Source: a virus (lineage: Duplodnaviria > Caudoviricetes). From it: 57,403 bases of DNA. Under the pieces are notes generated by a model. It was not told where the DNA came from. It did no database searches and saw only the letters and a list, made by a program, of their open reading frames with translations. A program made the position numbers and the translations under genes. Positions 1 through 53,708 of this stretch are shown piece after piece. Numbering within the stretch: the first letter of the stretch is position 1; each line of letters starts with the position of its first letter. The stretch covers positions 1 through 57,403 of IMG/VR virus record IMGVR_UViG_3300046170_000265. One strand, written 5' to 3'.

Positions 1-31
1 TTGAGATTTTGGTATTTTGTAATGAATGGAC

Positions 32-80
32 GTGAGGGGCGGCTCGTAAGGAGAGCAAACCGAGCCGTTGCTCCCCTCAC
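32..80 (-). ncRNA. Conserved stem-loop downstream of capsid gene A, loop GUUUGCUCUCCUUA
   Basis: GTGAGGGG/CCCCTCAC and CGGCTCG/CGAGCCG stems; same 12-nt loop core at 42332-42343. Confidence 0.6.
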
Positions 81-100
81 TCCAATTGGGTCGTTAACGC

Positions 101-24433: not shown

Positions 24434-26139
24434 GGTAATTCTCCTTGTGGTTTGTACTCAGGTGAAACCAATTGATCGGGTTCATCATCTGAGCCGAGTA
24501 GATGTGTAAGTTCTTCTTCAAGCAGTCGACCGCTATCCCTGTTGAAGACTAGAGTTCCGGCGTTGCTTGAGGTTTGTCCGGTAAAGCGATTTTTCAGGAC
24601 CGCTAGGTGTCGAATGTCGCTGTCTGGTTCGTCACGATCGACGTTGAGTGCAATGACAGCATCACTTAGCTGACCAAGGCTTGCCGATCCTCTGAGATGG
24701 TTCAACCTGACCGGCTGACCACCACTTTCATGGCCTGAGTTCCCTTCGGGGCGACGGACGTGCGACACCAGGATTAAACCAATGCCCAGCTCCTGGACTA
24801 ATGTCCGCAGCTTAGTCATGGCGTAATCAATCAGTTGCCGCTCGTTACCAAAGCCCCCTGCTCCCATTTGGGTGCAAAGGATTGAGATGTGATCCAATAC
24901 GATCCAACGGACACCCAAGGCTTTCACCATGTAGGTAATCCGTTGACAGATCAGATCGACGTCTGAGCTACCAAAATGGTCATAGAGGTAGACAGGATGC
25001 CGGCCATCACCGAACAAGTCGTCGAAGGCTGCAACGATCTCTTCATCAGTTGCCAGGCTTCGATCGATCGTAATGTTCTTGCTCATGTGTGTGCCAACCA
25101 GGCCAAGCAAGGTCCGCTTGTTGCTTTCTTCAAGCATAATCAAGCCAACCTGCTCACCGGATTGGTGCAGGTGATAGCAAATCTCTTTCACGAAAGTTGA
25201 TTTCCCGATCCCAGAGCCAGCAGCAATTGTGACCAGCTCATACGGTCTTAACCCGTGCAGAATGTCATTTAGCACCGAGTAAGGGTATGTGATGGATGAG
25301 GCTGCATCATCCACAGCAATTGCGCTTCTGAGATCGGTAGCAGCCACGATCCCGTCAGGCCGATAGTCACGGGCCTGAAAGATCGCCTGAATTACTTCTG
25401 CTGATTTACCTTGGACCAGGCACTCATTGGCGTCCTTGCAGGGTAAATATGCAATTTTGCATCTACCGACAGGTAGTGTTTCTGCGACAGCCAGGGCCGC
25501 ATTTTGGCCGCTACTGTCCATATCGAACATCAGGATCACTTCCTCGAAGCCGAGAACGTAATCCCAATTGTCTTTAATTGCTTTGACAGCCGATGGTGCG
25601 CCATTAGGCAGCGACACCACTGGCCATCTGTTGTTTTGGATCTGTGAGACGCTCAGGCAGTCAATTTCACCTTCTGTGATGACCAGCTTTTTTCCGCTGC
25701 GCCATAGGTGTGACCCAAACAACGTGCTTTCACGTTGGTTGCCAATGATTGAGAACCTTTTGTCTTTGGTCCTGAGCTTCTGGGCAACAGGTTTGCCATG
25801 CTTGTCTCGATAGACAGCAATCTGCGTCTCTTGCCCGTTGTGTTTACCAACCAGGTATCCAAACTTTTTGCAGGTCGCCTCAGTTAATCCTCGAGCTGGT
25901 ATCGCTTTTGGGATGCCCGAGAGTAAGACTTCTTGTTTCGTTTGACCTTGGTTCGGTACTGGTTGCGGTTTGTCGCCAACTGGCGAGCCACCGGATTTCT
26001 CACTGCCACTATAGGTGGTACAGGAGAAACAGAACGTATGTCCGTCATCAAATACTCCATTTGCGTCTGATGAGCCGCAAGCATCACAGCTGGTATGAGT
26101 TACGAACTGTGATTGGCTCTCCTTTGGTATTGCTTGCAT
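24430..26139 (-). CDS. Primase/helicase (T7 gp4-like)
   Basis: Zn finger CDAC..CFSC, TOPRIM TEGEIDC and FDMD, Walker A AGSGIGKS, LDH, LRGS, KNRFTG; AGGAGAG RBS before MQAIP. Confidence 0.95.
   Translation of the reverse strand: MQAIPKESQSQFVTHTSCDACGSSDANGVFDDGHTFCFSCTTYSGSEKSGGSPVGDKPQPVPNQGQTKQEVLLSGIPKAIPARGLTEATCKKFGYLVGKHNGQETQIAVYRDKHGKPVAQKLRTKDKRFSIIGNQRESTLFGSHLWRSGKKLVITEGEIDCLSVSQIQNNRWPVVSLPNGAPSAVKAIKDNWDYVLGFEEVILMFDMDSSGQNAALAVAETLPVGRCKIAYLPCKDANECLVQGKSAEVIQAIFQARDYRPDGIVAATDLRSAIAVDDAASSITYPYSVLNDILHGLRPYELVTIAAGSGIGKSTFVKEICYHLHQSGEQVGLIMLEESNKRTLLGLVGTHMSKNITIDRSLATDEEIVAAFDDLFGDGRHPVYLYDHFGSSDVDLICQRITYMVKALGVRWIVLDHISILCTQMGAGGFGNERQLIDYAMTKLRTLVQELGIGLILVSHVRRPEGNSGHESGGQPVRLNHLRGSASLGQLSDAVIALNVDRDEPDSDIRHLAVLKNRFTGQTSSNAGTLVFNRDSGRLLEEELTHLLGSDDEPDQLVSPEYKPQGELP
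24459..24476 (-). promoter_or_regulatory. Putative phage RNAP promoter upstream of mazG and the polymerase
   Basis: ATCAATTGGTTTCACCTG variant of the repeated motif. Confidence 0.6.
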
Positions 26140-26165
26140 TGCTGTCTCTCCTGTAATTGCTTGAA

Positions 26166-27513: not shown

Positions 27514-27547
27514 TAAGTTTCCTTTTTCCTGTTGATAGGGTTGTCTG

Positions 27548-27565
27548 TAGGTGAAACCAATTAAT
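27548..27565 (-). promoter_or_regulatory. Putative phage RNAP promoter
   Basis: ATTAATTGGTTTCACCTA, repeated intergenic motif shaped like the T7 promoter TAATACGACTCACTATA. Confidence 0.8.
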
Positions 27566-27579: not shown

Positions 27580-27604
27580 AAAAGGCGGCCCGAGAGCCGC
27601 CCTT
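27580..27604 (-). terminator. Intrinsic terminator after the RNAP gene, between two phage promoters
   Basis: GGCGGC/GCCGCC stem followed by TTTTGTGCGTTT on the minus strand. Confidence 0.7.
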
Positions 27605-27609
27605 GTACA

Positions 27610-27627
27610 TAGGTGAAACCAATTAAA
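27610..27627 (-). promoter_or_regulatory. Putative phage RNAP promoter
   Basis: TTTAATTGGTTTCACCTA copy of the motif. Confidence 0.8.
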
Positions 27628-27638: not shown

Positions 27639-30518
27639 TCATGTCATGAAGTAGTCGCTTTCGCGAACCTTCGTAATGTCCAGATCGCCTTTGGCCGGTA
27701 CTTCTGGCCATTTCACTATCCGGAGTTTCAAGGCATCCAGTTCAGCATTAAGACCCTCGAGCAACCCTTCATCCTCTTCATGTTCAATTAGTTCTTGAAG
27801 GTTGTGAATTTGCTCCTTGATCTCGAGGCTGTCTGGATCTGGGTGTCTTGCTTTGCACTGCTCGAGAAGGTCGCTGTATAGACAATATCCGTCATACATC
27901 TCGACCATTGCGTCTCTGGCAGCATCCCGCATCACCTCAGCATTACCACAGGTAGTGGCATAGCTGTCGTGAACGACCATAAGATCAGTAACCCCATGAT
28001 CAGCGCAGCGTAAGGCAGTTAACATCAACAATGTGCTATCCATCGAATGGATTATGTTGGGACTTACTGCACTGACGCTTTTATTAGGATCAATGCCGGG
28101 CATTGTTTTGGTGTAGCTCATCAAGCCCCGAGATTTGATAGCCTCGATATCATGGCTGTAAAGAAACACCCGACGCCTTGCCGACTTATTGTTCCGATAG
28201 TATTGATGCACCGGAAAGTTGAGTTTTGGCGTTTTGAAAGTGAGATGTAGATCGGCGTCAACCATGATCTTGGCGCAAGCTTGGAAAAATTCCATGCCAT
28301 CTTTGGCTGACTTGATCACACTTTCGATTGCGTCTTGACTGATACCAGCTAAGTAATGAGATGCCTGGTAACCGCCATCTTCAGGGAATGGATGCTTCTC
28401 ACGTTCACCAGCGCGAACCTCAAGATCCATTTCGTCCATCCAGTCTTTTTTGAACTGCTGGGCGAAGCCATACTTGCGGCTCGAATAAGCCCAAACCATG
28501 GCCGGTCTCTTGATGACACTCCGGTTTAGGTACTTTTTGCCTTTTGGATTTTCATCAGTCGGCTCGACCTCATAGGACAACAGTACTCTTGCAATGTCGA
28601 TTTCTTGATCACGCTTCAATCTTCTGTGTGAAGCAGTCTTTTTATAATCACGCTTTGCCTTGCGTTTCCTTTTCTCGAGAGCGTCCATTTCATCTAGATC
28701 GTCAGCTTTTTCAGCCATGATCCTTTGATATGCTTTGTGCGCTTCCCGATCATTGTCATTCGCAGGGTCAAGCTCTTGATTTGCAAGTTTCTCAGCCTTG
28801 TCAGCTTCGATCATTTCTTCTGCAACCACGAGACAAGCCTTGTACAGGTCGTTAGGCTTATCTTCTGAGCCTTTGACCAGGTTAACTAGCAATCCGTCAT
28901 CTTCGTTCAAGCTAGCAGCAGCGTAATGCTGGATGCCGGATTGAGTTGCATCGACGGCAACAGGTAAACCAGACCAATGGTCCTTGCCTTCTTGCTGGGC
29001 AACCATGTATTCAGCCAAGTCACGGCAAGCAGCTAAGAACTGGAATGGATCGTCAGCCTTGCTCCAGAAATCAAATGACGCCTTGTAATCGATGCCGACG
29101 TTGACCACTTCTTCAAGGTTTTCTTCCACCCATTTGATCCGAGTGTCGTAGCTCTCTTTATCCAAGCCATAGGTGTTTGAAACCTGCAGAAGGATCCATG
29201 CTGAATTTTCCTCTGTTACCTTCGTCTTGTTGGCAAATAGAAACATTGCCCTCAAGAAATCTGTATTGTGGTGGCCAAAATCGCTGACGTGATAGACACG
29301 CCCTCGCCGGTCCCAATTGTGTGGCATCCAGAACTGATCATATTGAGCAAGCTTCCTAGCTTCATTCAATGTACGGCGGATCTTTGACCGGTTGGCCCGA
29401 GCTTGCCTGTTGACGGCTTTGCATCGAGTTAGATTTCGCATATGAGCGATTTGATCATCTTTATCGAGGTCATCGTAGTTCACGCCTTCGTCGAGCTTTG
29501 GAACCTCAACAGTTTTGGTGTTTGGAAACTTTTTGACCAAACGGCCCTTGCCCGTCTTGCGGACCCAATCGACAGCATCGACCACAAAGTCATTAACGGT
29601 GTAAGGCACCTGTTGCAGGAGGTTTAAAGCCTCAACAGCCTTGTCTAAGCTGCCATCTCGCAATCCTGCATCAAGATCCTTACGCTGCTCTGGGCCAGCG
29701 TGTTTGACCATTGGCGTCATGATTGCCAGGCGAGGTGTTATGTATGGACCGATTTGATCCAAACCCCATGGTCTTGGCATTACATTCATTGGTGCAAGGT
29801 ATGGCGACATACGGTCAAGATCAGCAAACTTTTCTTCGATCTCAGCTTCTACCTCGGGACGCAGGATCATGAATTTTTCTGGGAAGTCTTTCGTCTCATC
29901 CGCTAGATCTTTGTGCGTCATGAACACGTCTTTACAAGCAGCTTCGACCACTGACAGTAAAAATGAGCCGACAGTCTGTTCTAAACCGCCATCATCATCT
30001 TCCCACTTCTCGAAGGTAAAGCCTCTTTTGGCTGCCTGACGCAGGACGTAATCTTGACGTTTTTCAACCTTGTCACTTTGCAACGTGGCGTTTTGTGCCA
30101 GCCGCTTTGCTAGGCGGTCACCAGCACGATTTGCTTGAAGTCTGTGTTCAAAATCCAGACACTTGATCGCCTGGCCGACCCTGTTTGCCAGCGTATTGTA
30201 AGTCCATTCTTTCTCATGGCCATCAAGACACTGCATGAAAGCGACATAAGCGACATCAATCTGTGGTAGTTCCGCAAGTGGCTCAAGCCATTTGGCGTTT
30301 TGACCGCGGTTAGCACGGGTTTGCTCAGACTGGCTTACAATCTCATCCATGATGGGCTGAATGTATTGTTCGATTAGTTTGACAGATACAACACTGGCAG
30401 ACATATCAAGGCTCTGGCGGCGGTCTCTAGAGCGAGCTTCGCCCCGATCAACTATGTTGACCTGCTCATGCTCCAAAGCATCTTTTCTGGTCCTGGGTGT
30501 ATTGTCGTTTGCTACCAT
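27639..30518 (-). CDS. Single-subunit T7-like RNA polymerase (959 aa)
   Basis: DRRGRVY, PFQFLA, motif A DATQSGIQHY, motif B RSVIKRPAMVWAY, PNIIHSMDS, motif C VHDSY. Confidence 0.96.
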   Translation of the reverse strand: MVANDNTPRTRKDALEHEQVNIVDRGEARSRDRRQSLDMSASVVSVKLIEQYIQPIMDEIVSQSEQTRANRGQNAKWLEPLAELPQIDVAYVAFMQCLDGHEKEWTYNTLANRVGQAIKCLDFEHRLQANRAGDRLAKRLAQNATLQSDKVEKRQDYVLRQAAKRGFTFEKWEDDDGGLEQTVGSFLLSVVEAACKDVFMTHKDLADETKDFPEKFMILRPEVEAEIEEKFADLDRMSPYLAPMNVMPRPWGLDQIGPYITPRLAIMTPMVKHAGPEQRKDLDAGLRDGSLDKAVEALNLLQQVPYTVNDFVVDAVDWVRKTGKGRLVKKFPNTKTVEVPKLDEGVNYDDLDKDDQIAHMRNLTRCKAVNRQARANRSKIRRTLNEARKLAQYDQFWMPHNWDRRGRVYHVSDFGHHNTDFLRAMFLFANKTKVTEENSAWILLQVSNTYGLDKESYDTRIKWVEENLEEVVNVGIDYKASFDFWSKADDPFQFLAACRDLAEYMVAQQEGKDHWSGLPVAVDATQSGIQHYAAASLNEDDGLLVNLVKGSEDKPNDLYKACLVVAEEMIEADKAEKLANQELDPANDNDREAHKAYQRIMAEKADDLDEMDALEKRKRKAKRDYKKTASHRRLKRDQEIDIARVLLSYEVEPTDENPKGKKYLNRSVIKRPAMVWAYSSRKYGFAQQFKKDWMDEMDLEVRAGEREKHPFPEDGGYQASHYLAGISQDAIESVIKSAKDGMEFFQACAKIMVDADLHLTFKTPKLNFPVHQYYRNNKSARRRVFLYSHDIEAIKSRGLMSYTKTMPGIDPNKSVSAVSPNIIHSMDSTLLMLTALRCADHGVTDLMVVHDSYATTCGNAEVMRDAARDAMVEMYDGYCLYSDLLEQCKARHPDPDSLEIKEQIHNLQELIEHEEDEGLLEGLNAELDALKLRIVKWPEVPAKGDLDITKVRESDYFMT

Positions 30519-30768: not shown

Positions 30769-30810
30769 TCTCCTACCTTGGTTGAACTAAAGACCGGAAC
30801 TGGCCGTATA

Positions 30811-30828
30811 AAGGTGAAACCAATTAAT
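30811..30828 (-). promoter_or_regulatory. Putative phage RNAP promoter upstream of the RNAP gene
   Basis: ATTAATTGGTTTCACCTT followed by TATA. Confidence 0.8.
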
Positions 30829-31202: not shown

Positions 31203-31245
31203 AGTAAATGCTCCTTTTCACCAGAACCCGGGATGGGTTCGTATA

Positions 31246-31263
31246 TAGGTGAAACCAATTAAT
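31246..31263 (-). promoter_or_regulatory. Putative phage RNAP promoter at the head of the early region
   Basis: ATTAATTGGTTTCACCTA followed by TATA and a GAACCC/GGGTTC hairpin. Confidence 0.8.
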
Positions 31264-31474: not shown

Positions 31475-32446
31475 TTATATTGACAGTGCGGACACAGCCC
31501 CTGCCCGTGCAGATGCGTCGCCATGATAGTACTTCTTTGTCGTAGCGACGCTGGAATGACCCAGCTGCTCAGCCACTGTCAATGAGTTGACCTTGGCCCG
31601 TGCCATATTGGTTGCAGCATAATGCCTTGTAGCGTGAAACTTGAACCAGGTGTCGTTGCCATGGCCCATAAAGTCCTTCACATCGTTCCAGCGGTCATAA
31701 AAGCGTCTGTGGGTGAACTCACGGCCAATGTTAGCCCGAAGCCACTGAGCGGCTTCCCATGCGCCATCAGCGACCAGGCTTACCCAGCGACCTTTGCTGG
31801 TCTTTGTAACTTGTGCCGGAAGCCAAACTTCCTTGGCATCATCGTTCCATTCAATAATGTCTAACGGTAACGCTACGATTTCGCCCTGCCTCATACCTGT
31901 AAGACAACCCAGCTTAATCATGTATGACACCCACTGGTCGCCATTGCGATCATGCAGCTCGATCATCTGACGTACCTGGTCTTTGGTGAAGGCACGGGTA
32001 TTTGGCTCAGCTTGCTTTAACAAGCCTACCCTTGGACGATCAGTCATGATCTGCAGTTCCTCGACTGCGAACCGGAAGCAAGCTGATACAGCAGACAGAT
32101 GCCGGTTGATTGTCGAATCAGTCATATCTGTATGTTGCTGGAGATAATTGCGATATGCGATACAGTCAGCAGCCGTGATCTGGTTCATCGGCTTCATGCC
32201 GTAGTCTTTGAAATCTGCGAATCGGGACACCTGCATCATACAGTCACGACGGTGCTTGAAGGCTCCCCACATATCACGCTGGTGCTTGTGAGCGAACATA
32301 AGGATATTAGAGCGGCTGCAGTCGAATTTGGTGTCGTCAATAGCAGCTGGAGCTGGCTCAGGGCGACTGTCGATTACATTGTTGGTACTGATGATTTCAT
32401 CTGAAGTGGGGTTAGAAAAGTCATCGAAAAGGTTAAATTGGTCCAT
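31475..32446 (-). CDS. int: Tyrosine integrase
   Basis: Catalytic residues TGMRQGE, TKTSK, FHATRH, LGHS and TKKYY; adjacent to the att site. Confidence 0.95.
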   Translation of the reverse strand: MDQFNLFDDFSNPTSDEIISTNNVIDSRPEPAPAAIDDTKFDCSRSNILMFAHKHQRDMWGAFKHRRDCMMQVSRFADFKDYGMKPMNQITAADCIAYRNYLQQHTDMTDSTINRHLSAVSACFRFAVEELQIMTDRPRVGLLKQAEPNTRAFTKDQVRQMIELHDRNGDQWVSYMIKLGCLTGMRQGEIVALPLDIIEWNDDAKEVWLPAQVTKTSKGRWVSLVADGAWEAAQWLRANIGREFTHRRFYDRWNDVKDFMGHGNDTWFKFHATRHYAATNMARAKVNSLTVAEQLGHSSVATTKKYYHGDASARAGAVSALSI

Positions 32447-32523
32447 CTTACGGTCTCCTTAGAGTTACATAAGATGAAACGGGGGGTGTGTCGCTTGACT
32501 ACCGCCGATTTCTAGCAGTCATT

Positions 32524-32919: not shown

Positions 32920-35244
32920 ATGAAAATCCCACAACAAATGACTAAGCGACAAAAAGACAGGCTTACGGTTCTGAATTCAAAAGGCATCACCGCTCTTCAA
33001 ATAGCCAAAATACTTGAGCTTCCTTTAGTGTTGGTTGAGGAAGAAATTGAAACGCGAAAGCAAAATCTTTTGAAGAAAAGATGGACGAAAGACCAGTCAA
33101 ATGAAGCGTTAGACTTATATGTCAAAAACGTGTCTCTAACTGAAATTGCAAACCTAACTGGTAAAACTAGAGTGCAGATAGCAAGGCACTTCAGAGATAT
33201 TAGGGATGACTGGGTTAACGAAGGCACAAAATACAACTATTTGAATGTTGATTTGAGAGTGAAATTAGCAGCTAAAATTGAACGAAGGGAAAACACTGAC
33301 AAGCGGCCAATAAGAATGGCTAGAGCGAGGCTCCCTGACAAAATACGGAGCAAGCAGCTAGCTGGTCTCGCAGAAACACTCGCTTATAAAGAAAATGTGC
33401 TGCTTGATGAATGGTGGCAGTTTGGCGTCCTAAACAGCGTTGAGGATGACCGCCTTAGCCTGACTGCAATCTCGAAGGACAACAACAGGGTTACATTAAT
33501 CAAGAAGTACACGCCGAACTGGAAAGAAGTTCTGCTGAAACTGAAAGGCTTGATGGGTGAATTTGTTTCTGTCCGTGTAATTCAAAATTACTTACCAGTT
33601 GTTAATGCCGGAGCAGGAACTAAGAAAGATGTTGTCTACGAACCACGGATGGTTGACGTAACGGCATCTGAAGGCATCATGAGCCTCGCAAAGTCCTTCC
33701 CAAGTGACACCCGAAACCAGTCTTTCATTGGAAGGTATAAGTGGTTGCGCTTTGGCGAGTTTGAAGCCAAGTCAACCAGCGAACACATTCTCATTGGAAA
33801 TGTTGATGGTCGGGTCATGGCTTTCCGAAAGGGCAGCATCAACAGCGTTCTAGAGCAACGTCTCACGGACACTTTAGATATGGCTGAAGGTCAATCTATC
33901 TTGGTTTGTGTAGACCAAAAAAATCCAAAGCCTGACGGTGTTTTAAGCGTGTTTGTTGACGCACACATCGAAGAGGAAGGCATTGAGACTTACAACGAAG
34001 ACTACAATACAATTGTAGAAACGATTGCTCGCACAAAGGATGAAGCTGCTGAGGCTAACTTGACAGTGCAAAAAAAGCACAAAGAGATACAACAGCAGCT
34101 ACTAGAGAAAGAAGTGCAACATACAAAACAGATTACAGAACTGAAGTTTGAGTTCGAGCGTGAAACACAAGAAGTACAAGCACAGATAAAGGAACAAACA
34201 GGTGCTTTTAGACGCTTAGAAGCAGAATTACAAAGAGAGCTGCTAGATTACAATGAACAAGAGAGGTTTCTGCGCGACACAAAAGAAGGGCTTCAACAGT
34301 ACAAGGTAGGTGTTCTAGCAGCGGCTGCAGACCAAACAGGGTCGGGCAGCACTTTTCAAATGAAAGGGCTGAAGGTAATACAAGGCGAAGAGGCTCAGTG
34401 GCATGATTTCAATGAGGCAATCAAGGCATTTGAGGGGAGTGGAGGTGAAGAAGCACAAGAGCTTTACAAAGAAATCCAAGACCTAAAAAGGGAAGTGTTA
34501 AAAGCACATAAGAATGCAGCTGCTACTTCAAATACCTCTGAAGAAGAGGAAGGGTTTGAGCCACCAGAACCAGATTACATCCTCAACCCTGAAGCAGACC
34601 TCTCGCTTTTTGATGAAAAGCAACCAGACCCGGACAGCCCAATGATGGCAATGATGCGAGAGATGATGGCAGAAGTGCAGAGTTTAAAAAGCTCGCAACA
34701 AAGTTTTATTGAAGCATCAGCAATGACAGAGTTTGAAGTTCAAGAGTTACGTGACTATTCCCGTGCAGAAGACGAAGAGTTGAGTACAGACAACGCAAAA
34801 ACAGAAGCTGAACACAAAGACATACTGGAGAATGTGAGAGAGTTTGTCGGAAAGCCACCAAGGCAACTAAAAGTGTACGTTGGTCACGCTCGGAATACAC
34901 TATGTCTTCGCGCCGGTATCGACCTTACAAGGGAAAAACCTGACAACAGGATTGATGTTCAGTTTACCAAACACATTGGTAAATCAACGTTTCTGGTTCA
35001 CTTCCCCAAATACAATCATGACGCAATGCTATCCATTGTTCGAGACTCGAAAGACAAAAACGATTTTGCAGTAAAATCATGCCTTCATCTTGATGGTGAA
35101 AGGTGGAAAGAAATTGAACAGGAAGTCACAGGACAAGGTGGTAAGCGTCTGACAGGCAAAAAGCCCAAACAGTGGTTAGCATATCGCAAACAGATAATTG
35201 CAAAGCTAGAAGCACCTAAAGCGAAAAAAAAGGCCAGAGGATAA
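32920..35244 (+). CDS. Uncharacterised 774-aa accessory protein: tandem HTH, duplicated domain, coiled coil, C-terminal domain
   Basis: Only long plus-strand ORF in the window, AT-rich, between att and the endolysin. Confidence 0.85.
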   Translation: MKIPQQMTKRQKDRLTVLNSKGITALQIAKILELPLVLVEEEIETRKQNLLKKRWTKDQSNEALDLYVKNVSLTEIANLTGKTRVQIARHFRDIRDDWVNEGTKYNYLNVDLRVKLAAKIERRENTDKRPIRMARARLPDKIRSKQLAGLAETLAYKENVLLDEWWQFGVLNSVEDDRLSLTAISKDNNRVTLIKKYTPNWKEVLLKLKGLMGEFVSVRVIQNYLPVVNAGAGTKKDVVYEPRMVDVTASEGIMSLAKSFPSDTRNQSFIGRYKWLRFGEFEAKSTSEHILIGNVDGRVMAFRKGSINSVLEQRLTDTLDMAEGQSILVCVDQKNPKPDGVLSVFVDAHIEEEGIETYNEDYNTIVETIARTKDEAAEANLTVQKKHKEIQQQLLEKEVQHTKQITELKFEFERETQEVQAQIKEQTGAFRRLEAELQRELLDYNEQERFLRDTKEGLQQYKVGVLAAAADQTGSGSTFQMKGLKVIQGEEAQWHDFNEAIKAFEGSGGEEAQELYKEIQDLKREVLKAHKNAAATSNTSEEEEGFEPPEPDYILNPEADLSLFDEKQPDPDSPMMAMMREMMAEVQSLKSSQQSFIEASAMTEFEVQELRDYSRAEDEELSTDNAKTEAEHKDILENVREFVGKPPRQLKVYVGHARNTLCLRAGIDLTREKPDNRIDVQFTKHIGKSTFLVHFPKYNHDAMLSIVRDSKDKNDFAVKSCLHLDGERWKEIEQEVTGQGGKRLTGKKPKQWLAYRKQIIAKLEAPKAKKKARG

Positions 35245-35248
35245 ACCT

Positions 35249-35758
35249 CTAGCCCATAGCTAACGCTTGTTTTCTTGTCTCGTCATTTCTTCTTAACCAC
35301 CCTCGCCCAAACACATCAAAGTTAGACAGTGAGCGATAGAACTCTTCCCGATACACCGCAATTCTGTTGATGATATTTGCCACTTCATGCTTCTTAACGA
35401 GCATAAGGGTCAGTGGCCCGACAGAACCGTCTTCTTCGGCCTCTACAGCCTTCTGGAGCGTCCTTGCGGCTCTTCCAGTACCAGCGTTAACAGCGAAGTC
35501 AAAGACCGCCCAGTCAAGCCCTGAAGCTAGGTCTTGGCAGCGGCATCTGTTCCAGTAATTACGCCGATAGATTGGCTCAACGTCACCCTTCGTAAGAGCC
35601 TTCATGACCTCTTCAGTAGCATCGCCACCATAGAACTCATCATAGACCCGTTTTGTTACCCCGAGGTTGGTTTTGCCTCCGCTGTCGCGACTATCGTCCG
35701 AATACCCACCTTCGTGGGCTAGCAGCATCGTCATGCACACATCAAAGTTCTGGTTCAT
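35249..35758 (-). CDS. Endolysin, glycoside hydrolase family 108 with peptidoglycan-binding domain
   Basis: HEGGY, DSGGKTNLGVT, FDFAVNAG and FGRGWLRR motifs. Confidence 0.92.
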   Translation of the reverse strand: MNQNFDVCMTMLLAHEGGYSDDSRDSGGKTNLGVTKRVYDEFYGGDATEEVMKALTKGDVEPIYRRNYWNRCRCQDLASGLDWAVFDFAVNAGTGRAARTLQKAVEAEEDGSVGPLTLMLVKKHEVANIINRIAVYREEFYRSLSNFDVFGRGWLRRNDETRKQALAMG

Positions 35759-35946
35759 GCCTCTGCTCCGTTAATAATTGAGCATTTGTATTCGACCGAC
35801 TGCCAATTACCATCCTGTGGAAAATCTTCGTGGAGAGCCTTCATCTGGATGCATTCAGGTTTGTCTTCAAACCACGCGATAGTCTGAGATGCACACTTAT
35901 CGTTTAGGCAAACAGTGAGTAATAAAGTCCATATAATCTGGGTCAT
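35755..35946 (-). CDS. Small exported Cys-containing protein in the lysis cassette
   Basis: Hydrophobic N-terminus, four Cys, coupled to the endolysin gene. Confidence 0.6.
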   Translation of the reverse strand: MTQIIWTLLLTVCLNDKCASQTIAWFEDKPECIQMKALHEDFPQDGNWQSVEYKCSIINGAEA

Positions 35947-35948: not shown

Positions 35949-36341
35949 CTATTTACCCTTCCGCAACATTTTGGCTGCTTGGCCTACGCCCTTGATGCCG
36001 AAGCTGCTGCTGATGGCAATAAACAATAGGTACTGATACCAGTCTGGTAAGGTCGCCAAGATAGCGAAGCCTTCTTGGACTTTGTCTGGAACGAAGTAGA
36101 CGGCTACTGCTGGGGCCATTAGGGCCACAAGAGCAAACTCGTCTTTCCAAGATGACGCTGTGTTTTCTATAGCGGCCTGTTCCCAGTCGATGTCACCTGT
36201 CGCTACTTTCTCAGCAACCACCGCCCTGCTCTTTGCTTCAGCTACGTTTGCCTCTGCTTTGGCTTTGGTGGATGCCACCTTTCCTTCCATCCATGCACCA
36301 GCGATGCTGGCGATAGGGGAAATTAGTGCAGACCAAATCAT
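35949..36341 (-). CDS. Probable holin (3TM-holin-like)
   Basis: Hydrophobic segments, SWKDE and LPDWYQYLL motifs, basic C-terminus. Confidence 0.65.
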   Translation of the reverse strand: MIWSALISPIASIAGAWMEGKVASTKAKAEANVAEAKSRAVVAEKVATGDIDWEQAAIENTASSWKDEFALVALMAPAVAVYFVPDKVQEGFAILATLPDWYQYLLFIAISSSFGIKGVGQAAKMLRKGK

Positions 36342-36790
36342 TGGCTTGCCTCCTTTAAAATTAATGCAAAAATGCCCAGCACGGTTAGGGCCAGTCCGAT
36401 AGAGACAGCCCAGTAGATGCAGAGCATGATGTTGTCTTGAAGTTTGAGTGATTTGAGCCGCGCTTCTTTGGCTGCTTCGGCTCTTTGGCGTCTGGCTTCA
36501 GCACAGAATTTGACATAATCGTTGTACATGTTGGCTCTGCCGTACAACTGCATCATTGACCGAAGTTCAGCCTCTTTACGCCTCAGTTCATCTAAGGCAA
36601 GAAACTCTTCTAAGTCAGACTTTGAGCCATCAAGATTTGTGCCTCTGTCGTGGGCTTTCTTCTGGATGACATCTTTGTTGAGGGTGAAGTCGGATATGGC
36701 CTTGCCAGCTTTGGCAATGTCTGAGCCATTCTCGACACATTTCTTAATTATTGCGAAAGCAGCATTTGCTGCTGCAATCTCTGCCAGCAT
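36338..36790 (-). CDS. Membrane-anchored coiled-coil protein in the lysis cassette
   Basis: C-terminal transmembrane segment; stop overlaps the holin start. Confidence 0.7.
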   Translation of the reverse strand: MLAEIAAANAAFAIIKKCVENGSDIAKAGKAISDFTLNKDVIQKKAHDRGTNLDGSKSDLEEFLALDELRRKEAELRSMMQLYGRANMYNDYVKFCAEARRQRAEAAKEARLKSLKLQDNIMLCIYWAVSIGLALTVLGIFALILKEASQ

Positions 36791-36823
36791 AGAGCGTCTC
36801 CACTAGGGGTTACGCTCTCCTTA

Positions 36824-37027
36824 TTAAAGTTTCATCAAAAGGCTTCCTGCTAGGCCAACGATGACCACCGTTGACCCCATTATCATGGCTTCCAAACGCC
36901 ACAAGCGTTTATCAAGACCTGATAGTTTATCTTCTACAGACGCATAACGTACTGCACATTCCTTTTCGTGAGCCTCAAGTTCCAAGGCGACACGCAATTC
37001 TGGGGTGATGGCTTGCTCTAGCTTCAT
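36824..37027 (-). CDS. Small coiled-coil plus transmembrane protein
   Basis: HEKECAVRY..LDKRLWRLE followed by a hydrophobic tail. Confidence 0.7.
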   Translation of the reverse strand: MKLEQAITPELRVALELEAHEKECAVRYASVEDKLSGLDKRLWRLEAMIMGSTVVIVGLAGSLLMKL

Positions 37028-37386
37028 GCTGGCTTCTCAGGCCAAGTAACATCATCTAGTGATGTAGCACTGGTTGTAATGTCACGAAGTGCCTGACGAT
37101 AATCAAGCTGTGCTTGAGTTGCCGTAGCAGTGTCAGACAATGCCCAATGGTCTGTTTGTTTCAGCATACCATCACGAACCATTCGTAACATTTTTAACGG
37201 TTCTGCATTTTCAAGTGCTGTAACTCCAGCCTCAAACTCTTCTTCTGTGGGCTTAGTGTGTTCTGTGGTCATCCACTCAAGGTTTGCATAGACAGGCTCA
37301 CCATAGAAAACAAAAGCTCCAGTAACCGTTTCGTCTCCAATATGCTGGACAATAGAACCAGCCGCAAACTTTTGATATCTATCCAC
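37024..37386 (-). CDS. Tail fibre assembly chaperone-like protein
   Basis: LR..RD..L..TD.W, YRQALRDIT and WPEKP motifs; GTG start after a GGGAG RBS. Confidence 0.75.
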   Translation of the reverse strand: MDRYQKFAAGSIVQHIGDETVTGAFVFYGEPVYANLEWMTTEHTKPTEEEFEAGVTALENAEPLKMLRMVRDGMLKQTDHWALSDTATATQAQLDYRQALRDITTSATSLDDVTWPEKPA

Positions 37387-38227
37387 GGTCAATTCTCCCT
37401 CTGAAAATAAAACTATAAGTGTTAGAGGCACTACTGAAGTGGGTGCTGGTTGTATAAGTATCTAAATATTGATTAGACGCACCTCCGTTCCACGGAACAA
37501 TCAGTTGCACTTCATAAACATTGTAATACCAGTCATAGTGAGAAGCCCCAAAGCTTGTTGCATAGGTACTGCTTGGTTGGCTTTCTTGTATCCAATAACC
37601 GTTACAGTAGCCATGTGAGGTGTTTCCACCGTTGAATTGAAAGTAAAAACCACATATGAGAGCGATAGTGTTGCTGTTGGTGTAACTTGACATATCAGTA
37701 TGGGCTATTCGAGTAGCAGACGGGCTAGTGTTGAAGCCACTCAGCAAAGTCACGCCTGCTCTACTAATCGAGATGGGGCTTGTTGATAGCTTTGCGCTAG
37801 GTAGTGATGCGTCAGCAATACGAGCTGCGGCTAGTGTGCCTGTGCTAAGTGCAGAGGCGTCTAGGCCAGTGGACGGAAGCCTAGCAGCGGCTAGTGTGCC
37901 TGTGGTTAGAGTAGAAGCATCAGTCGATGCTGGAAGGTTCGTTAGGCTAGAGCCATCTCCGGCAAAGCTAGTGGCACTTACCGCACCGCCTGATGCCACG
38001 GTCACTTGGTTGTGGTTATCAATGCCCAGACTGGTTAAGGTTGGTGTCGGAATACCAGTTAGGTTTGCACCGGATACCGCTGGCAGTGTCGTAGGAAATC
38101 TACCGTCTGGCAGAGTGCCTGTGCTAAGTGCAGATGCGTCATTAGACGCTGGTACGTTGTCGAGTGCTGTAGACACAACATCCCCATTCGCGTCCAGTAA
38201 GGAGGCGAGGTCGTTAGCTTTTGTCAT
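37379..38227 (-). CDS. Short tail fibre protein
   Basis: Three DAS.L.TGTL...R repeats, F.GDGS.LTNLP motif, aromatic-rich C-terminal domain. Confidence 0.7.
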   Translation of the reverse strand: MTKANDLASLLDANGDVVSTALDNVPASNDASALSTGTLPDGRFPTTLPAVSGANLTGIPTPTLTSLGIDNHNQVTVASGGAVSATSFAGDGSSLTNLPASTDASTLTTGTLAAARLPSTGLDASALSTGTLAAARIADASLPSAKLSTSPISISRAGVTLLSGFNTSPSATRIAHTDMSSYTNSNTIALICGFYFQFNGGNTSHGYCNGYWIQESQPSSTYATSFGASHYDWYYNVYEVQLIVPWNGGASNQYLDTYTTSTHFSSASNTYSFIFRGRIDRG

Positions 38228-41956: not shown

Positions 41957-42274
41957 CTAGATACTTTTGTCTGTGGTTAAAAAGCCGTCCAAGTTTTCAG
42001 CTTTCAATCTGGATACAATCTCTGCACCCGTGATGTTTCTATCGGACATGATGTCGAAGCCTTCACGCCGCCACTTCTCGACCACAACAGTGGGAATTGA
42101 AGCTACACGCATGAAGTTACCTTCTCGCTGTCCACGGCTGGCGTCTCGCTCTCGCTTCAGGCCATCCATAAATGATTGAGGTATGTGCTGTGTATGTTTG
42201 CGGGTAAGCGTTTCGTCATCTTCTTCAACAAAGTTGGTATCGATGCCGATAAGGTTCGTGTCACGTTTTGACAT
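41957..42274 (-). CDS. Conserved hypothetical protein downstream of the capsid gene
   Basis: AGGAGA RBS; RVASIP.VVVEKW..EG.DI motif. Confidence 0.75.
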   Translation of the reverse strand: MSKRDTNLIGIDTNFVEEDDETLTRKHTQHIPQSFMDGLKRERDASRGQREGNFMRVASIPTVVVEKWRREGFDIMSDRNITGAEIVSRLKAENLDGFLTTDKSI

Positions 42275-42318
42275 GAGTTCTCCTATTGGTGTCTTTTTTA
42301 GGGATAAATTAAGAGAGA

Positions 42319-42356
42319 CGAGAGGCGCGACAAGGAGAGCAAATTCGCACCCCTCG
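42319..42356 (-). ncRNA. Conserved stem-loop downstream of capsid gene B, loop AUUUGCUCUCCUUG
   Basis: 12-bp stem CGAGGGGUGCGA/UCGCGCCUCUCG that is fully paired only on the minus strand (two G-U pairs). Confidence 0.6.
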
Positions 42357-42368
42357 CCCTCTAACTGT

Positions 42369-43259
42369 TTAGCTTAGGCCGGTAATCATACCTGAGTCTG
42401 AATACGACATATGCTTGAGCGAGTATTCGCCGACAATCGCATGGCGGTCGCCGTCTTGCTGTTTCGCAAGCAGTGTCCGTGTAAACGGACGCAGTACGCA
42501 TGAGCGGAACATGGTTGGGTCGATAAGCAGAGCGTGAGTGCTTAACAAGTGGCGGTTCAAAATGACGCGATATTCACCATAGGGGCTAACGTACAAATCA
42601 ATAGCGTTAACCAAGGTTTTATTGCCATCATTGATTTCACGGCTACGCCCAGAGGCTGCAGTGAAGCCAGCAACGATTTGTGCGTCAGCTGGTTTAATCA
42701 TGAAGGTAGTTGGGTCTGAACCATTGCCGTAACAATCTTCGCCTAGCTCCAGAAGTTTTGCTTCTGTTAGTGGGTCGGTAGCGTTTGAACCAGCATCTAC
42801 AGTTGTAGAAATCTGCGGGATAACACTATCCATCTCACGGGCGGTTGAAGCGTTACCAGTTACCTTGGCGTTGTCTTGGCCCACATAAGCAAATTCTAAA
42901 TCACGCTTTATGGATTTTAGGGCTTTCGACAGCTGATGAGCCGTTTCTTTTGCCCTGCCGTGTAGCCGAATTGAGTCAGCTGTGGCGGTCACCTCAAACA
43001 CATCAGAAAGTATCTGCGTATTATTAGTGCGTAAGGTTGTTGCTGAACGAGCTACGTTCACAAATTCAGCTCCCTCGACAGCCTTATTATCGGCTGCGTT
43101 TGGAAGCGCATCTTCCATCCATTCAAATACGCGAGCATTCACTTTTTCGGATTTGATAAGGGAAGTAAAAGGGGTGTCCGTAGGGGTAATCGAAGTGATA
43201 ATCGAACTGACATCCTCCGCTTTACCTACTTGGTCGTAGGTGGAAAATTCGTTTGCCAT
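42369..43259 (-). CDS. Major capsid protein B (SU10/DUF5309-like)
   Basis: Intact 296-aa ORF; EDVSSIITSITPTDTPF, NNTQI and LKSIKRDLE motifs. Confidence 0.9.
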   Translation of the reverse strand: MANEFSTYDQVGKAEDVSSIITSITPTDTPFTSLIKSEKVNARVFEWMEDALPNAADNKAVEGAEFVNVARSATTLRTNNTQILSDVFEVTATADSIRLHGRAKETAHQLSKALKSIKRDLEFAYVGQDNAKVTGNASTAREMDSVIPQISTTVDAGSNATDPLTEAKLLELGEDCYGNGSDPTTFMIKPADAQIVAGFTAASGRSREINDGNKTLVNAIDLYVSPYGEYRVILNRHLLSTHALLIDPTMFRSCVLRPFTRTLLAKQQDGDRHAIVGEYSLKHMSYSDSGMITGLS

Positions 43260-43288
43260 GTTGTAAGTATTCCTTTTTGGCTATTGGG

Positions 43289-44321
43289 TTATGTTTCCCA
43301 ACGCTTCAAAAGAACTTCAGCAATATCGTCGATGTCACTTCCTGCAGACTGTGCCAGCTTTGCCTCTGCATCTTGGATGCGCTTGGCTTTAAGCTGGGCG
43401 TTATTCGCCGGTGACTTATTAGATTTAAGCACCTTCTTGGCGACACGCTTTTTCTTTGTGGTGGTGACTTGCTTGGCTTGGTCGTAAAGACGAGCCTTGT
43501 TCAGCACCTTGATAACCACAGGGTCTACGTAGTTGTTGACTTGTTCTTCGGGCAATCCAAGCCCGATAGCATATGACCTGATATCGTCATAAAGCTGATT
43601 GTTCCAATCCGGCACATCTTGCTCCAGCACCTTTACAGCCTCTTTGGCTGCATCTTGCATTGCTGCTTGTTGCTGTTGCTTTAGTCCGTCATAGAAGCTG
43701 GCTTGCTTCTTCTTTGATAAATTTCAAATCATTGTGTGCGTCCTGAGCTTCTTTGCGCAGTTGCGTGAAGTCAGCGTCATCCAAGTTCTTTGAAGCTAAA
43801 ATCATGTCAACTTCTGAATATGGTTGGTAGCGTTCTTCAGCCTTCTGCACCATGCGCTGCAGGATAGCATCGGTTTTGCCGATATTGTCTTCAGCCTCTT
43901 TGCGTTGAGCTGCTACTTCTTGAGACTTTCTGGTAAGGCTTGCTTCTTGTCCGTAAAGACGCTTCAAATCTTTGATGGATGCCTGTTTGGTTTCGCCTTC
44001 GACTGAGATTTCAATGAGAGTGTCATCGTCAACTTCGACAGTTTCCTCTTCATCATCTTCTTCTTGGTCTTCGGCTTCTTCCTCTTCTTCGTCAGGGTCT
44101 ATCTCTTCATCTTCGTCATCTAGTTCGACTTCTTCAATCGCCTCATCTTCCTGCTCTTGGACATCTTTAGTCTCGTCATTGTCCTGAGCAGTAGCCTCTT
44201 CCGTAGCTTGTTCTGATGGCTGGTCACCAGCGTCTTCCCATCGCTTCAAAAGGGCGTCAGCCGCTTCGTTAACATCTAACGCTTGCGGCCTCTGTTCTTG
44301 AGATGTTTGCACGTTATCCAT
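43289..44321 (-). CDS. Capsid scaffolding protein B, frameshift near 43690
   Basis: ORFs 43689-44360 and 43289-43660 together match scaffold A. Confidence 0.8.
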
Positions 44322-44599
44322 GGTGCTATTCTCCACTGTTATCGTTGGCCTCAGCTTCACGCTTGGTCAGTATTTCGTCACGAATTGCCACACGCTGCTT
44401 TAAGCGTATGGACAACTCCGACAAGACCTCTGTAGTGAAAATAAGACTGTTCTCTTTGGTCGGCTTCTTCAGGTTTCGAGTTAACAAATCCCTGAAATGC
44501 CTCTTCTACTAGACTGTTCACAATGCTATTGAACGTATTGTTTTTCAATAACTCTTCAGCCTGATTGCCTTGGTCATACAAGGCATCTTCGTCTTGCAT
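44314..44599 (-). CDS. Small conserved head-module protein B; end approximate, frameshifted
   Basis: AAGGAGAG RBS; homolog of 2084-2371. Confidence 0.7.
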
Positions 44600-44624
44600 A
44601 GAATTCTCTCCTTAAAGTGTTAGC

Positions 44625-48240: not shown

Positions 48241-48704
48241 CCTCTAACAAACCAGACAAGAAATCCTCAGCCTTGCTGAGTGCGACTTCAGATTTTGAAG
48301 CTGGCTTTTGACGGGTGAAGTCCAAAACAAGTCTGGCAGCTGCGACACGCTCTCGATTGTCACCTACCGTGCGCATTACTTCGACTGCTGTTTCCAGAGC
48401 GACTTTTGCGTACTCGTCCTCGATATCAAATTCTTTTGCCATGATTTCTACTGCCTTTTTGGCCTCAGCTTTCACTTTGGCTCTTATTGGTTCGATTGTT
48501 TCTTTGCTATATCCATCGGGAACACCGCGTGGTCGCCCTGCATTTTTACGGGGCTTTGTTGACCACTGTCGCCGTAATGCACGGCCTTCTTCGGTCTGCA
48601 TCTAGCGAAGCAAAATAGTTATTTTTTGGTGCTTTTTGCGGGTGTTTTCCTTGGCCTTTTTTGCTGGGGCTTTTCGCCCGTGGCTTTGACGGCTTTGAAC
48701 CCAT
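48191..48704 (-). CDS. terS: Probable terminase small subunit B, frameshift near 48602
   Basis: LRRQWSTKPRKN.GRP.G.PDGY shared with copy A; N-terminus PRAKSPSKKGQGK in another frame. Confidence 0.7.
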
Positions 48705-48895
48705 TGATAGCTTCCTCGATTTTGGTTAGCACGATTGCTCTTGTGTCCTTGCAGTGAACGCAAAATTGAACTGGTGGGATACATCTTGCCATGTCATCCA
48801 GCACCAGAACCTTTTCGCTATCTGTCAATGCAGACGTAGATAATCGCTCAACGCTTGTGAGTATCCCCACAAGGTCGCTTAGCTGATGTTTGCAT
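48619..48895 (-). CDS. Hypothetical protein specific to phage B, overlapping terS; start probably frameshifted
   Basis: AAGGAGAG RBS before the ATG at 48895; ORF 48619-48870 contains CVHC. Confidence 0.5.
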
Positions 48896-48919
48896 CAGTT
48901 CTCTCCTTGATGTGTGTGT

Positions 48920-53699: not shown

Positions 53700-53708
53700 G
53701 CCATGCTC

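Follow-up and report, generated by a model that had tools for sequence, protein, structure and literature searches.

A start codon that lies directly behind a stable RNA hairpin raises the question of how ribosomes gain access to it. In the viral DNA analysed here (57,403 nucleotides, hereafter the window), this is the situation of ORF150 (36338..36790, minus strand), a gene of the lysis cassette. The sequence-only reading of this locus had proposed that the hairpin is opened by pairing with the loop of a second hairpin, located behind the capsid gene, so that the abundance of the capsid mRNA would time lysis. This interpretation is partly supported by the analysis reported here, and the "lysis timer" itself is pure conjecture. 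The 39-nt stretch ending in the ORF150 AUG is a conserved and, by prediction, unusually closed translation-initiation region; what opens it is the subject of the sections that follow.

The ORF150 leader and its gene context

ORF150 encodes a protein of 150 amino acids with a C-terminal hydrophobic segment, belonging to the phage-only family phrog_32327, and its N-terminus, MLAE(L/I)AAANAAF, is conserved in relatives from the AUG at 36790. The gene had been placed at the head of the cassette as its membrane protein, but this position is taken by ORF67 (36824..37027, minus strand), a small protein that also has a C-terminal hydrophobic segment, is 75–94% identical in the relatives L001–L018, and comes first among the membrane proteins behind the tail genes. 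Downstream, the ORF150 stop overlaps the start of ORF130 (AUGA). ORF130 (35949..36341, minus strand; phrog_2524) shows three hydrophobic stretches when its translation is read by eye, and is a candidate holin. It is followed by the endolysin gene (35249..35758, minus strand), with a Glyco_hydro_108 domain and a weak PG_binding_3 match, and by a canonical intrinsic terminator behind it (35255-35231, minus strand). The cassette genes are tightly packed. A single-subunit RNA polymerase gene at 27639-30518 marks the phage as T7-like; the capsid proteins of the nearest cultured phages are less than 35% identical to its own, and a megablast search of the lysis region against cultured phages gave no match.

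All elements of the leader are on the minus strand. The ORF67 stop codon, read from the sequence as UAA at 36826-36824, lies 33 nt before the ORF150 AUG (36790-36788), and right behind it starts a block, UAAGGAGAGCG (36813..36823), that contains a first Shine-Dalgarno sequence (SD1) and is complementary to the capsid-hairpin loop. The block opens with UAAGG (36823-36819), the UAA of which (36823-36821) is a second in-frame stop codon, and its final six bases fall within the 5' arm (AGAGCGU, 36818-36812) of the leader hairpin (36791..36818); its exact complement on the plus strand is CGCTCTCCTTA. The 14-nt hairpin loop, AACCCCUAGUGGAG (36811-36798), ends in GGAG, a second Shine-Dalgarno sequence (SD2, 36798..36801) positioned 7 nt ahead of the AUG. 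The spacer between SD2 and the AUG is the 3' arm of the hairpin (ACGCUCU, 36797-36791), and the AUG itself falls outside the stem. The earlier description of this leader (36823-36788), with a 7-bp hairpin between the SD and the AUG, is therefore accurate.

The 7-bp stem is present in both the MFE and the centroid fold of 36770-36850, and the hairpin folded alone has an energy of −11.6 kcal/mol. Positions −32 to +3 of the ORF150 start fold at −12.7 kcal/mol, which ranks second among the 63 SD-bearing ORF starts in the window (median −3.2), and opening the start region (−13 to +5) costs 12.7 kcal/mol in a 105-nt context. The 81-nt leader region as a whole shows no significant excess stability over shuffled sequences (z = −1.22).

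An Rfam search at the gathering threshold returned no match across the whole window, and an intrinsic-terminator scan does not flag the leader hairpin, which is followed by AUGCUGGC with no U-tract. T7-like phages use hairpin processing sites between genes. Given its position at a module boundary in a phage that possesses such an RNA polymerase gene, the hairpin could direct RNA processing or stability, through RNase III or RNase E for example, and so divide the tail-gene message from the lysis message. However, a 7-bp stem is short for RNase III, and the missing U-tract and terminator flag also speak against such a role, which I regard as very improbable.

Conservation of the leader element and of nearby upstream stops

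The block GG(A/G)GAGC, together with a hairpin right ahead of the AUG, is present in 15 distinct relatives. Three stem solutions are found, with the arm pairs GAGCGU/ACGCUC, CCCAAGG/CCUUGGG and CCAG/CUGG. In single-sequence folds, 13 of 14 distinct leaders (from L001–L018, L048 and L057) have a hairpin of at least 5 bp within 0–9 nt of the AUG, and G005 carries a third variant. GG-GAGC is the sole invariant block in the alignment of the 14 distinct leaders, and the GGAG of SD2 is retained 6–10 nt ahead of the AUG in all leaders shown. Conservation of the hairpin in relatives, which the sequence-only reading had put forward as a check, thus holds for this set; it does not extend to G001, G002, G003 and G015, four of the five complete distant relatives in which an ORF150 homologue was found, which lack the element and keep the capsid-hairpin loop. 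The same applies to L036, L056, L068 and L071, in which hairpin and complement are both missing from the ORF150 homologue while the loop is intact.

The common form of the leader (the window, L001, L003, L005, L008 and L057) has a constant geometry, consisting of SD1 (GGAG), a 5-bp core AGCGU/ACGCU, 1–3 nt and the AUG. Every base of the block is explained in this form, because the upstream SD and the local stem account for all of them. In a second form (L002, L010, L018), the stem sequesters SD1 itself, and in the second and third forms (the same three leaders and G005) the AGC of GGAGAGC lies outside any local stem and is still conserved. The MAFFT alignment of the leaders leaves the 3' arms unaligned, and statements on the stem therefore rest on single-sequence folds. 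Within the stem core, only G-C to G-U changes and extra top pairs are seen; since double compensatory changes never occur, covariation neither supports nor refutes the stem.

One could argue that nothing at this locus is regulatory, the hairpin and the loop match being incidental and inherited, and the loop resembling the complement of any strong SD. The regional z-score is what this would predict, as is the frequency of the loop complement in the window, given below, which is at chance level; most element-bearing leaders, moreover, come from phages with ORF150 proteins that are 68–89% identical. The local stability rank is hard to reconcile with this explanation, however, as is the persistence of the hairpin through three arm solutions despite diverging flanking leader sequence. 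The element also occurs in two phages, L048 and L057, in which the capsid protein shares only 56–60% identity with that of the window. I consider a purely incidental origin improbable.

Alternatively, folding of the hairpin could enhance initiation. A split ribosome-binding site (RBS), in which a hairpin separates the SD from the AUG, is described for phage T4 genes 25 and 38, and the ORF150 leader similarly has a strong SD far upstream and an intervening hairpin that would shorten the effective spacing: by looping out 24–28 nt, it would bring SD1 (AAGGAG) near the AUG. The constant geometry of the common form is consistent with this, as is the location of the AUG outside the stem. In the T4-type arrangement there is a single upstream SD and none at normal spacing, whereas here GGAG stands before the AUG in all leaders; this second SD, conserved in the loop at an ideal 6–7 nt from the AUG, would be superfluous if SD1 did the work. 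In addition, SD1 is sequestered by the stem in the second form. These features make a split RBS a poor candidate.

A further conserved property concerns the gene upstream. In all 15 hairpin-bearing leaders, an upstream frame without a stop over 40 or more codons terminates between −44 and +23 relative to the AUG (−36 in the window). The upstream stop lies inside the hairpin loop in L003/L004, and also in L013–L016, the leader of which is identical to that of L003; in L007/L008 it coincides with the end of the 5' arm, and in L010 the upstream frame traverses the entire hairpin. In these leaders, the geometry alone implies that the upstream ribosome would unwind the stem. In the window, the stem begins about 5–6 nt past the ORF67 stop, which is borderline for unwinding by a terminating ribosome. 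Among hairpin-less relatives, the upstream stop is just 5–18 nt from the AUG in five of six.

Since the upstream ORF always stops nearby, translational coupling would suffice to open the start, and I favor this as the likeliest single account, at a little under an even chance. The hairpin most likely keeps free ribosomes from initiating at ORF150, and a ribosome coming directly from translation or termination of the upstream ORF (ORF67 in the window) would be held at SD1, from where it would melt or invade the stem and permit ORF150 translation, by coupling or from a standby position. The structure rank, the conservation in three forms, the close upstream stops, the packed cassette and the parsimony of SD1 plus stem all argue for this mechanism. 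The complementarity to the capsid loop would then be largely a by-product of a block made of an SD and a GAGC-rich stem arm. The conserved unpaired AGC in L002, L010, L018 and G005 argues against SD1 and the stem being sufficient. The AUGA overlap between ORF150 and ORF130, together with the tight packing, leads me to propose that the arrangement would keep the membrane proteins encoded before the endolysin at a low level and in a fixed ratio.

Translational coupling via a closed downstream start is known from the RNA phage MS2 and from many operons. The present locus shares with these the occluded downstream start, the upstream ORF ending within tens of nucleotides of it (in every hairpin-bearing leader) and the tight packing; it differs in the extra SD-like block between stop and hairpin, and in that the stop of the window is just outside the stem. 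The ribosomal helicase usually acts at about +11, and coupling in the window is not guaranteed, because a terminating ribosome would merely abut the stem. Repression by the hairpin is likewise an assumption, since a hairpin between SD and AUG can also enhance initiation, as in T4 genes 25 and 38. RNA structure at a lysis gene has a further precedent in the "sdi" stem-loop of the phage lambda S gene, which tunes initiation at the holin start. In both cases, RNA structure is found where a membrane-protein gene of the lysis cassette begins; however, the N-terminus of ORF150, MLAEIAAANAAF, has no second Met, and therefore no lambda-type dual-start motif, and ORF150 is no established holin.

The capsid 3' hairpin

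The hairpin proposed as the trans-acting partner (42307..42366, minus strand) is located between the SU10-type capsid gene (42369-43259) and ORF105 (41957-42274). Its stem has about 22 pairs and its 14-nt loop, AUUUGCUCUCCUUG (42344-42331), includes the core GCUCUCCUU at 42340-42332; compared with shuffled sequences, the fold has z = −2.88. A second copy (28..83, minus strand), with the loop GUUUGCUCUCCUUA at 60-47, is found behind a second capsid gene (148-984). All related phages examined have the hairpin behind a capsid gene of the same family. The core GCTCTCCTT is present in 26 of 30 distinct capsid hairpins, the stems of which covary, and a further 16 hairpins were found behind the same capsid family. 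Within the window, the exact 9-mer GCTCTCCTT or its complement occurs four times, versus none for the reversed control. An exact 14-mer scan of viral contigs returned mostly chance and ordinary RBS matches, and only matches in a hairpin context are informative.

Rfam contains no family for the capsid hairpin, giving just chance-level miRNA-like matches (E of at least 0.4), and a literature search on the capsid 3' hairpin found nothing relevant. The terminator scan does not flag the window's hairpin, which has a 14-nt loop and a weak U-tract. In many relatives, it is accompanied by a U-run or a separate canonical terminator. As this separate terminator lies 3' of the hairpin in several of them, the hairpin appears to be more than a terminator. 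T7 possesses the T-phi terminator behind its capsid gene, and in T7 early mRNA the 3' end pairs with an RBS, a pairing relieved by RNase III. The present phage resembles T7 as a podovirus that encodes an RNA polymerase and has a strong hairpin right behind its major capsid gene, and T7 also offers a precedent for pairing between an mRNA 3' end and an RBS. The separate terminator in relatives sets it apart from T-phi; a 13–16-nt loop with an invariant 9-mer is not known as a feature of T-phi-type terminators.

Twenty of the 23 runs listed contain part of the capsid region (16 of them on record as RNA), all as assembled contigs. In the four that were compared with the window, one contig of 1045 nt, from X3, matches 42198-43190 and so spans the capsid hairpin; it has a U-to-C variant in the loop, shared with L019. 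Since contigs carry no information on the ends, strand or level of an RNA, this one says nothing on termination or abundance.

With covarying stems and an invariant loop of 9 nt, the capsid 3' hairpin is well supported as a new conserved phage RNA motif, spread over dozens of lineages, and its loop is clearly a functional, sequence-specific RNA element.

Candidate targets of the capsid-hairpin loop

As the sequence-only reading had noted, UAAGGAGAGCG can form 11 contiguous pairs, two of them G-U, with loop bases 42341-42331 (UGCUCUCCUUG). Five of these 11 pairs lie outside the main leader stem, forming a 5-nt toehold that is weakly paired upstream in a longer fold. The ranking of the loop against phage leaders suggested at the time gives two different answers. 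By raw duplex energy, ORF150 is the best leader in the window (−16.9 kcal/mol, the others reaching −14.7 or weaker); once the cost of opening (+11.5) is included, the net energy is −5.4 kcal/mol, which places it 34th of 129 candidate starts. When the block is held single-stranded, the cost of opening the start region falls from 12.7 to 7.3 kcal/mol. Matches to the 11-mer with up to two mismatches occur 14 times in the window, where 12.45 are expected, and 37 of 100 shuffles equal this count. Judged on the window alone, the match is compatible with chance; the comparative evidence lifts it above chance, namely the exact 9-mer count given above and the conservation of both leader element and loop in relatives. 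Where loop and leader are on one contig (L048, L057, G005, G006/G010, G007, G008 and G012), 9–13 contiguous pairs are possible, as judged by eye. The pairing is kept in the window's clade, L048, L057 and G005, the invariant loop core leaving true covariation unscorable.

It is plausible, though less likely than not, that the loop pairs with UAAGGAGAGCG, opens the leader and activates ORF150 and, by coupling, ORF130. In this model, the loop marks the 3' end of the capsid message, which among the late mRNAs is presumably the most abundant; read-through transcripts would carry it too, 5.5 kb upstream of the leader. Pairing would start at the single-stranded UAAGG and invade the 5' arm, freeing the spacer and the AUG for SD2, so that ORF150 and ORF130 would be switched on as capsid mRNA accumulates. 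The long, energetically strong duplex, the lowered opening cost and the pairing in relatives all speak for this, as do the near-invariant loop core between covarying stems, the separate terminators 3' of the hairpin, and the invariance of GG-GAGC even where its AGC is locally unpaired. Against it stand the weak net energy and the relatives that keep the loop with neither leader hairpin nor complement; since the loop is intact where the leader element is missing, the ORF150 leader cannot explain its conservation.

The closest formal parallels are DsrA-rpoS and RNAIII-hla, in which a closed leader is activated by an anti-antisense mechanism. The ORF150 leader likewise occludes its start, and the 5' arm of its presumed inhibitory hairpin is complementary to a trans RNA with an accessible seed, the pairing of which would free the start. 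It differs in that the hairpin covers the SD–AUG spacer and not the SD, in the weak net energy, and in that the supposed activator is the loop of an mRNA 3' hairpin.

Stronger candidate partners exist elsewhere in the window. The sequence AAGGAGAG, which the sequence-only reading had pointed out in two other leaders, is indeed present at both sites, in the RBS (44606..44613, minus strand) of a 73-aa "pre-scaffold" ORF (44378-44599) and at 48908-48901 on the same strand. By net energy, the best loop target is the primase/helicase start region (26116..26152, minus strand; −11.6 kcal/mol), with the SD AGGAGAGA at 26152-26145, the AUG at 26139 and AAGGAGAGC at codons 6–8 (26124-26116); the pre-scaffold RBS reaches −10.8 kcal/mol, and both are far better than ORF150.

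In relatives, loop complements of 11–14 nt are found above chance at the RBSs of the primase (G002/G005/G015) and of the pre-scaffold ORF (G003/G015/L039/L065), those in the orthologous pre-scaffold RBS of G003 and G015 being 13–14 nt long. Four of seven genomes have RBSs whose match to the loop flank of their own genome is extended by 6 or more Watson-Crick nt, versus 0.16 expected in total, and AAA follows AGC at three of seven sites, versus 4 of 116 others. In G002 a loop C faces a target G, at the position where in G005 a loop U faces a target A. These observations favor the loop as an RBS-pairing element. On the other side, the loop position 5' of GCUCUCC pairs at 15 of 22 candidate sites in a manual tally, which is barely above chance; AGC is only the fourth commonest triplet behind AGGAG at RBSs (7 of 123, with AGA at 10); and in 22 of 80 unrelated phage loci the same 14-mer is found as an ordinary RBS. 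Two orthologous leaders account for the long matches, which may therefore represent as few as two independent events.

Several other explanations were considered and rejected. No universal extended loop partner was found near the capsid gene: the ORF105 SD offers only 4–8 contiguous pairs (usually 6–7, over the distinct loci tabulated), the capsid and scaffold SDs mostly about 5 (4–7), and the pre-scaffold RBS from 6 to 13. GGAGAG is not a general extended SD, the next two bases after AGGAG following composition (A 59%, then G 28%). Nor does the leader block represent a promoter for the phage polymerase: the promoter-like 23-mer that recurs in this phage differs from it, and sits at 24.4-31.3 kb.

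A loop of this kind has relatives among bacterial RNAs. OLE RNA carries an anti-SD mimic, reported as perfect, that is bound by the ribosomal protein bS21 (PMC12054373); like the capsid loop, it is a non-ribosomal RNA with a sequence resembling the 16S anti-SD. The OLE mimic is reported to act as a protein-binding site, and the capsid loop resembles the anti-SD only in its CUCCUU part. RsaE/RoxS-type sRNAs have C-rich, anti-SD-like motifs in hairpin loops (PMC6158497). They share with the capsid hairpin a conserved, single-stranded, pyrimidine-rich loop motif that is directed at G-rich, SD-like mRNA sites, with pairing at the RBS (PMC6158497). In contrast to these stand-alone bacterial sRNAs, the motif is here in the 3' hairpin of a capsid mRNA, its core is GCUCUCCUU and not of the CCCC type, the pairing is predicted, and the effect on ORF150 would be activation and not repression.

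Taken as a whole, the capsid 3' hairpin as a phage riboregulator not described before seems unlikely on present evidence. In such a system, rising capsid mRNA would let the loop GCUCUCCUU mask the primase and pre-scaffold SDs, shutting off replication and assembly genes, and open the ORF150 leader, so that translation of the lysis cassette would begin in step with capsid expression. Regardless of the pairing, the capsid 3' hairpin motif stands as a result, and the ORF150 leader offers a clean natural case of a translation start that is, by prediction, gated. If the pairing is true, an mRNA 3' hairpin would act as a regulator resembling an anti-SD, and RNA alone would link virion production to the translation of lysis genes in marine T7-like phages that form a large, uncultured group.

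A closed translation start in the lysis cassette

Genes around the lysis cassette are all on the minus strand. Five closely packed ORFs lie 3' of the tail-fibre genes and a tail-fibre chaperone (37024–37431, Phage_tail_APC): ORF67 (36824–37027), with a hydrophobic segment at its C-terminus; ORF150 (36338–36790), with a C-terminal hydrophobic segment; ORF130 (35949–36341, phrog_2524), with three hydrophobic stretches as judged by eye; ORF63 (35755–35946); and a GH108 endolysin (35249–35758). ORF150 overlaps ORF130 in AUGA, and a canonical terminator (35255–35231) stands at the cassette end.

The sequence-only reading described the ORF150 leader as a hairpin that locks the bases between an SD and the AUG, and re-reading the window returned exactly the same sequence. 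On the minus strand, the UAA stop of ORF67 (36826–36824) precedes UAAGG (36823–36819), AGAGCGU (36818–36812), a 14-nt loop with GGAG at its end (36811–36798), ACGCUCU (36797–36791) and the ORF150 AUG (36790–36788). The stem is present in both the MFE and centroid structures, with −11.6 kcal/mol by itself. Positions −32 to +3 fold at −12.7 kcal/mol, ranking second among 63 SD-bearing starts in the window (median −3.2), and within 105 nt of context it takes 12.7 kcal/mol to open −13 to +5. Compared with shuffles, the fold of the 81-nt region around the leader is not significant (z = −1.22). The integrase start (32446–32480, minus strand) likewise lies in a hairpin (−11.1 kcal/mol, rank 4 of 63), with its SD in the loop and its AUG in the stem.

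ORF150 homologues were found at 18 loci (68–89% identity), with the N-terminus kept from the same AUG. With loci L048 and L057, and including the window's own, these yield 14 distinct leaders, and in the MFE of 13 a hairpin with 5 bp or more ends 0–9 nt 5' of the AUG. The arms are commonly GAGCGU/ACGCU(C/U), with a second form, CCCAAGG/CCUUGGG, in five loci (L002, L010–L012, L018) and CCAG/CUGG in genome G005. A double compensatory change in the stem core was never seen among the leaders compared, and the sole invariant block of the alignment is GG-GAGC of an upstream SD-like element, plus GGAG close to the AUG. The homologues of four genomes (G001, G002, G003, G015) and four loci (L036, L056, L068, L071) have neither hairpin nor block, although their capsid loops are intact. 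The closed translation start of ORF150, with its tandem SDs, is real and conserved. That its hairpin acts as a split-RBS enhancer is improbable, and a processing site very improbable indeed.

The hairpin 3' of the capsid gene

The window record is a linear viral contig of 57,403 nt, about 1.36 genome units of two related T7-like phages; no cultured phage compared with it was close. Its homologous ends (1–15168 and 42236–57403), spaced about 42,235 nt apart, share only 70–75% nucleotide identity. Capsid genes (51% amino acid identity between the two), portal genes and terminase genes are each present twice. Either two related phages lie in tandem here, or two strains were assembled into a chimera. 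The contig also encodes an integrase, a single-subunit RNA polymerase, a primase/helicase and a DNA polymerase. A motif of about 23 nt (minus strand ATTAATTGGTTTCACCTATA...) occurs five times in the neighbourhood of the RNA polymerase gene and the early genes (24445–24476, 27534–27565, 27596–27627, 30797–30828 and 31232–31263), and these copies are likely promoters for the phage's own RNA polymerase. The sole large plus-strand ORF (32920–35244, 774 amino acids), flanked by one phage unit's lysis cassette and the following unit's integrase, had no match in Pfam or PHROG.

The capsid hairpin (42366–42307, minus strand) lies immediately 3' of the SU10-type major capsid gene (42369–43259; Pfam 3e-71), and has about 22 pairs and a 14-nt loop, AUUUGCUCUCCUUG (z = −2.88). 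Among 58 capsid-gene loci, with capsid proteins 53–98% identical to the window's, nearly all have a hairpin at this place. They provide 30 distinct versions, including one misfold at a contig end; the loop core is GCTCTCCTT in 26 and GCCCTCTCCT in three, and closing pair positions 2–6 show 5–6 pair types each. An exact 14-mer scan listed 80 loci, of which 20 added matches in a hairpin context; each of the 16 checked lies directly 3' of a capsid gene that shares the C-terminal signature, in many cases followed by a U-run. Several relatives have a canonical terminator 3' of the hairpin and distinct from it, and termination alone therefore does not explain the conserved loop. In L021, L112, L114, L117, L139 and L168 this terminator, G+C-rich and with a U-run, follows at once, an architecture similar to 3'-UTR-derived small RNAs. 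No Rfam family matched the hairpin, and the literature searched held nothing on it. These sequence comparisons show the hairpin to be strongly conserved as an RNA element. Within the loop core, CUCCUU resembles the 16S anti-SD and GCU does not.

A second hairpin with the same loop core (83–28, minus strand) lies 3' of the second capsid gene (148–984, minus strand); a bulge inside its 5' arm, GAGCAAC, is complementary to its own loop, which makes an alternative fold possible. This gene has an apparent frame shift near residue 262–266, its last ~35 residues matching in another frame (tblastn HSPs). A misassembly could account for this, as could a real or programmed shift. In L027, L029–L031, L040, L051, L053, L060, L065–L068, L070, L073, L075 and L077 the capsid-gene match spans ~1110–1165 nt rather than the usual ~880, indicating a ~250-nt insertion within the gene, possibly an intron or small mobile insert.

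Possible pairing of the capsid loop with translation starts

Loop bases 42341–42331 can indeed form the 11 pairs (two G-U) with leader UAAGGAGAGCG from which activation of ORF150 by the capsid loop was proposed. A match of this length is unremarkable in the window alone (14 against 12.45 expected). That hairpin and match are both incidental is improbable. By raw duplex energy the ORF150 leader surpasses all other window leaders (−16.9 kcal/mol; runners-up −14.7, −13.9, −13.2 and −12.8), but its advantage over generic SDs disappears once target accessibility is counted: opening costs +11.5, leaving −5.4 kcal/mol net, rank 34 of 129. The best net energies belong to the primase (−11.6) and the 73-residue pre-scaffold ORF (44378–44599, minus strand; −10.8).

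A target search in six complete relatives found sense-strand AGGAGAGC in every genome examined, mostly at start regions. These are the primase RBS in G002, G005 and G015 and, with 13–14 contiguous pairs, the RBS of the pre-scaffold ORF in G003 and G015; L039, L065 and G008 provide further cases. RBS sites with at least 6 nt of further Watson-Crick match to their own loop flank occur in four of seven genomes (0.16 expected in total). AAA follows AGC at 3/7 sites against 4/116 others, and where G002 has loop C against target G, G005 has U against A. Several points call for caution: the long complements all belong to two orthologous leaders, AGC ranks only fourth among the triplets that follow AGGAG, the first flank position pairs at only 15 of 22 candidate sites by my own tally, and the 14-mer of the scan is simply an RBS at 22 of 80 unrelated loci among those listed.

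At the primase start region (26116–26152, minus strand) the AUG is flanked by two loop-complementary elements, the SD AGGAGAGA and AAGGAGAGC at codons 6–8. In G003 the same motif lies just 3' of the zinc-finger codons, at the place of the internal start in T7 gene 4. G001 has a 12-nt perfect complement of its own capsid loop within the DNA polymerase coding region (sense 34597–34614), away from any start codon.

Possible mechanisms of the leader

Activation by the capsid loop draws real support from the invariant loop, from the invariant leader block, which persists even where the local stem does not include it, and from the surplus of long complements elsewhere; the weak net energy and patchy distribution argue against it, and I consider it plausible but less likely than not. 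Known relatives of the ideas discussed here are DsrA-rpoS-type activation, MS2-type coupling, the T4 gene 25/38 hairpins, lambda sdi and T7 T-phi. So are RsaE/RoxS, whose C-rich loops bind SDs (PMC6158497), and OLE RNA, an anti-SD mimic bound by bS21 (PMC12054373). The 'lysis timer' built on activation by the capsid loop is not supported by any data, and ORF150 belongs to a family with no assigned function (phrog_32327).

All 15 hairpin-bearing leaders have an upstream-frame stop at −44 to +23 of the AUG, within the hairpin or at its edge in L003/4, L007, L008 and L013–16; in five of six hairpin-less relatives it is only 5–18 nt from the AUG. These universal nearby upstream stops and the packed cassette fit coupling or standby, the simplest mechanism for the ORF150 leader and one I favour tentatively. 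A ribosome completing the upstream ORF, held at the upstream UAAGGAG-type block, would open the leader stem.
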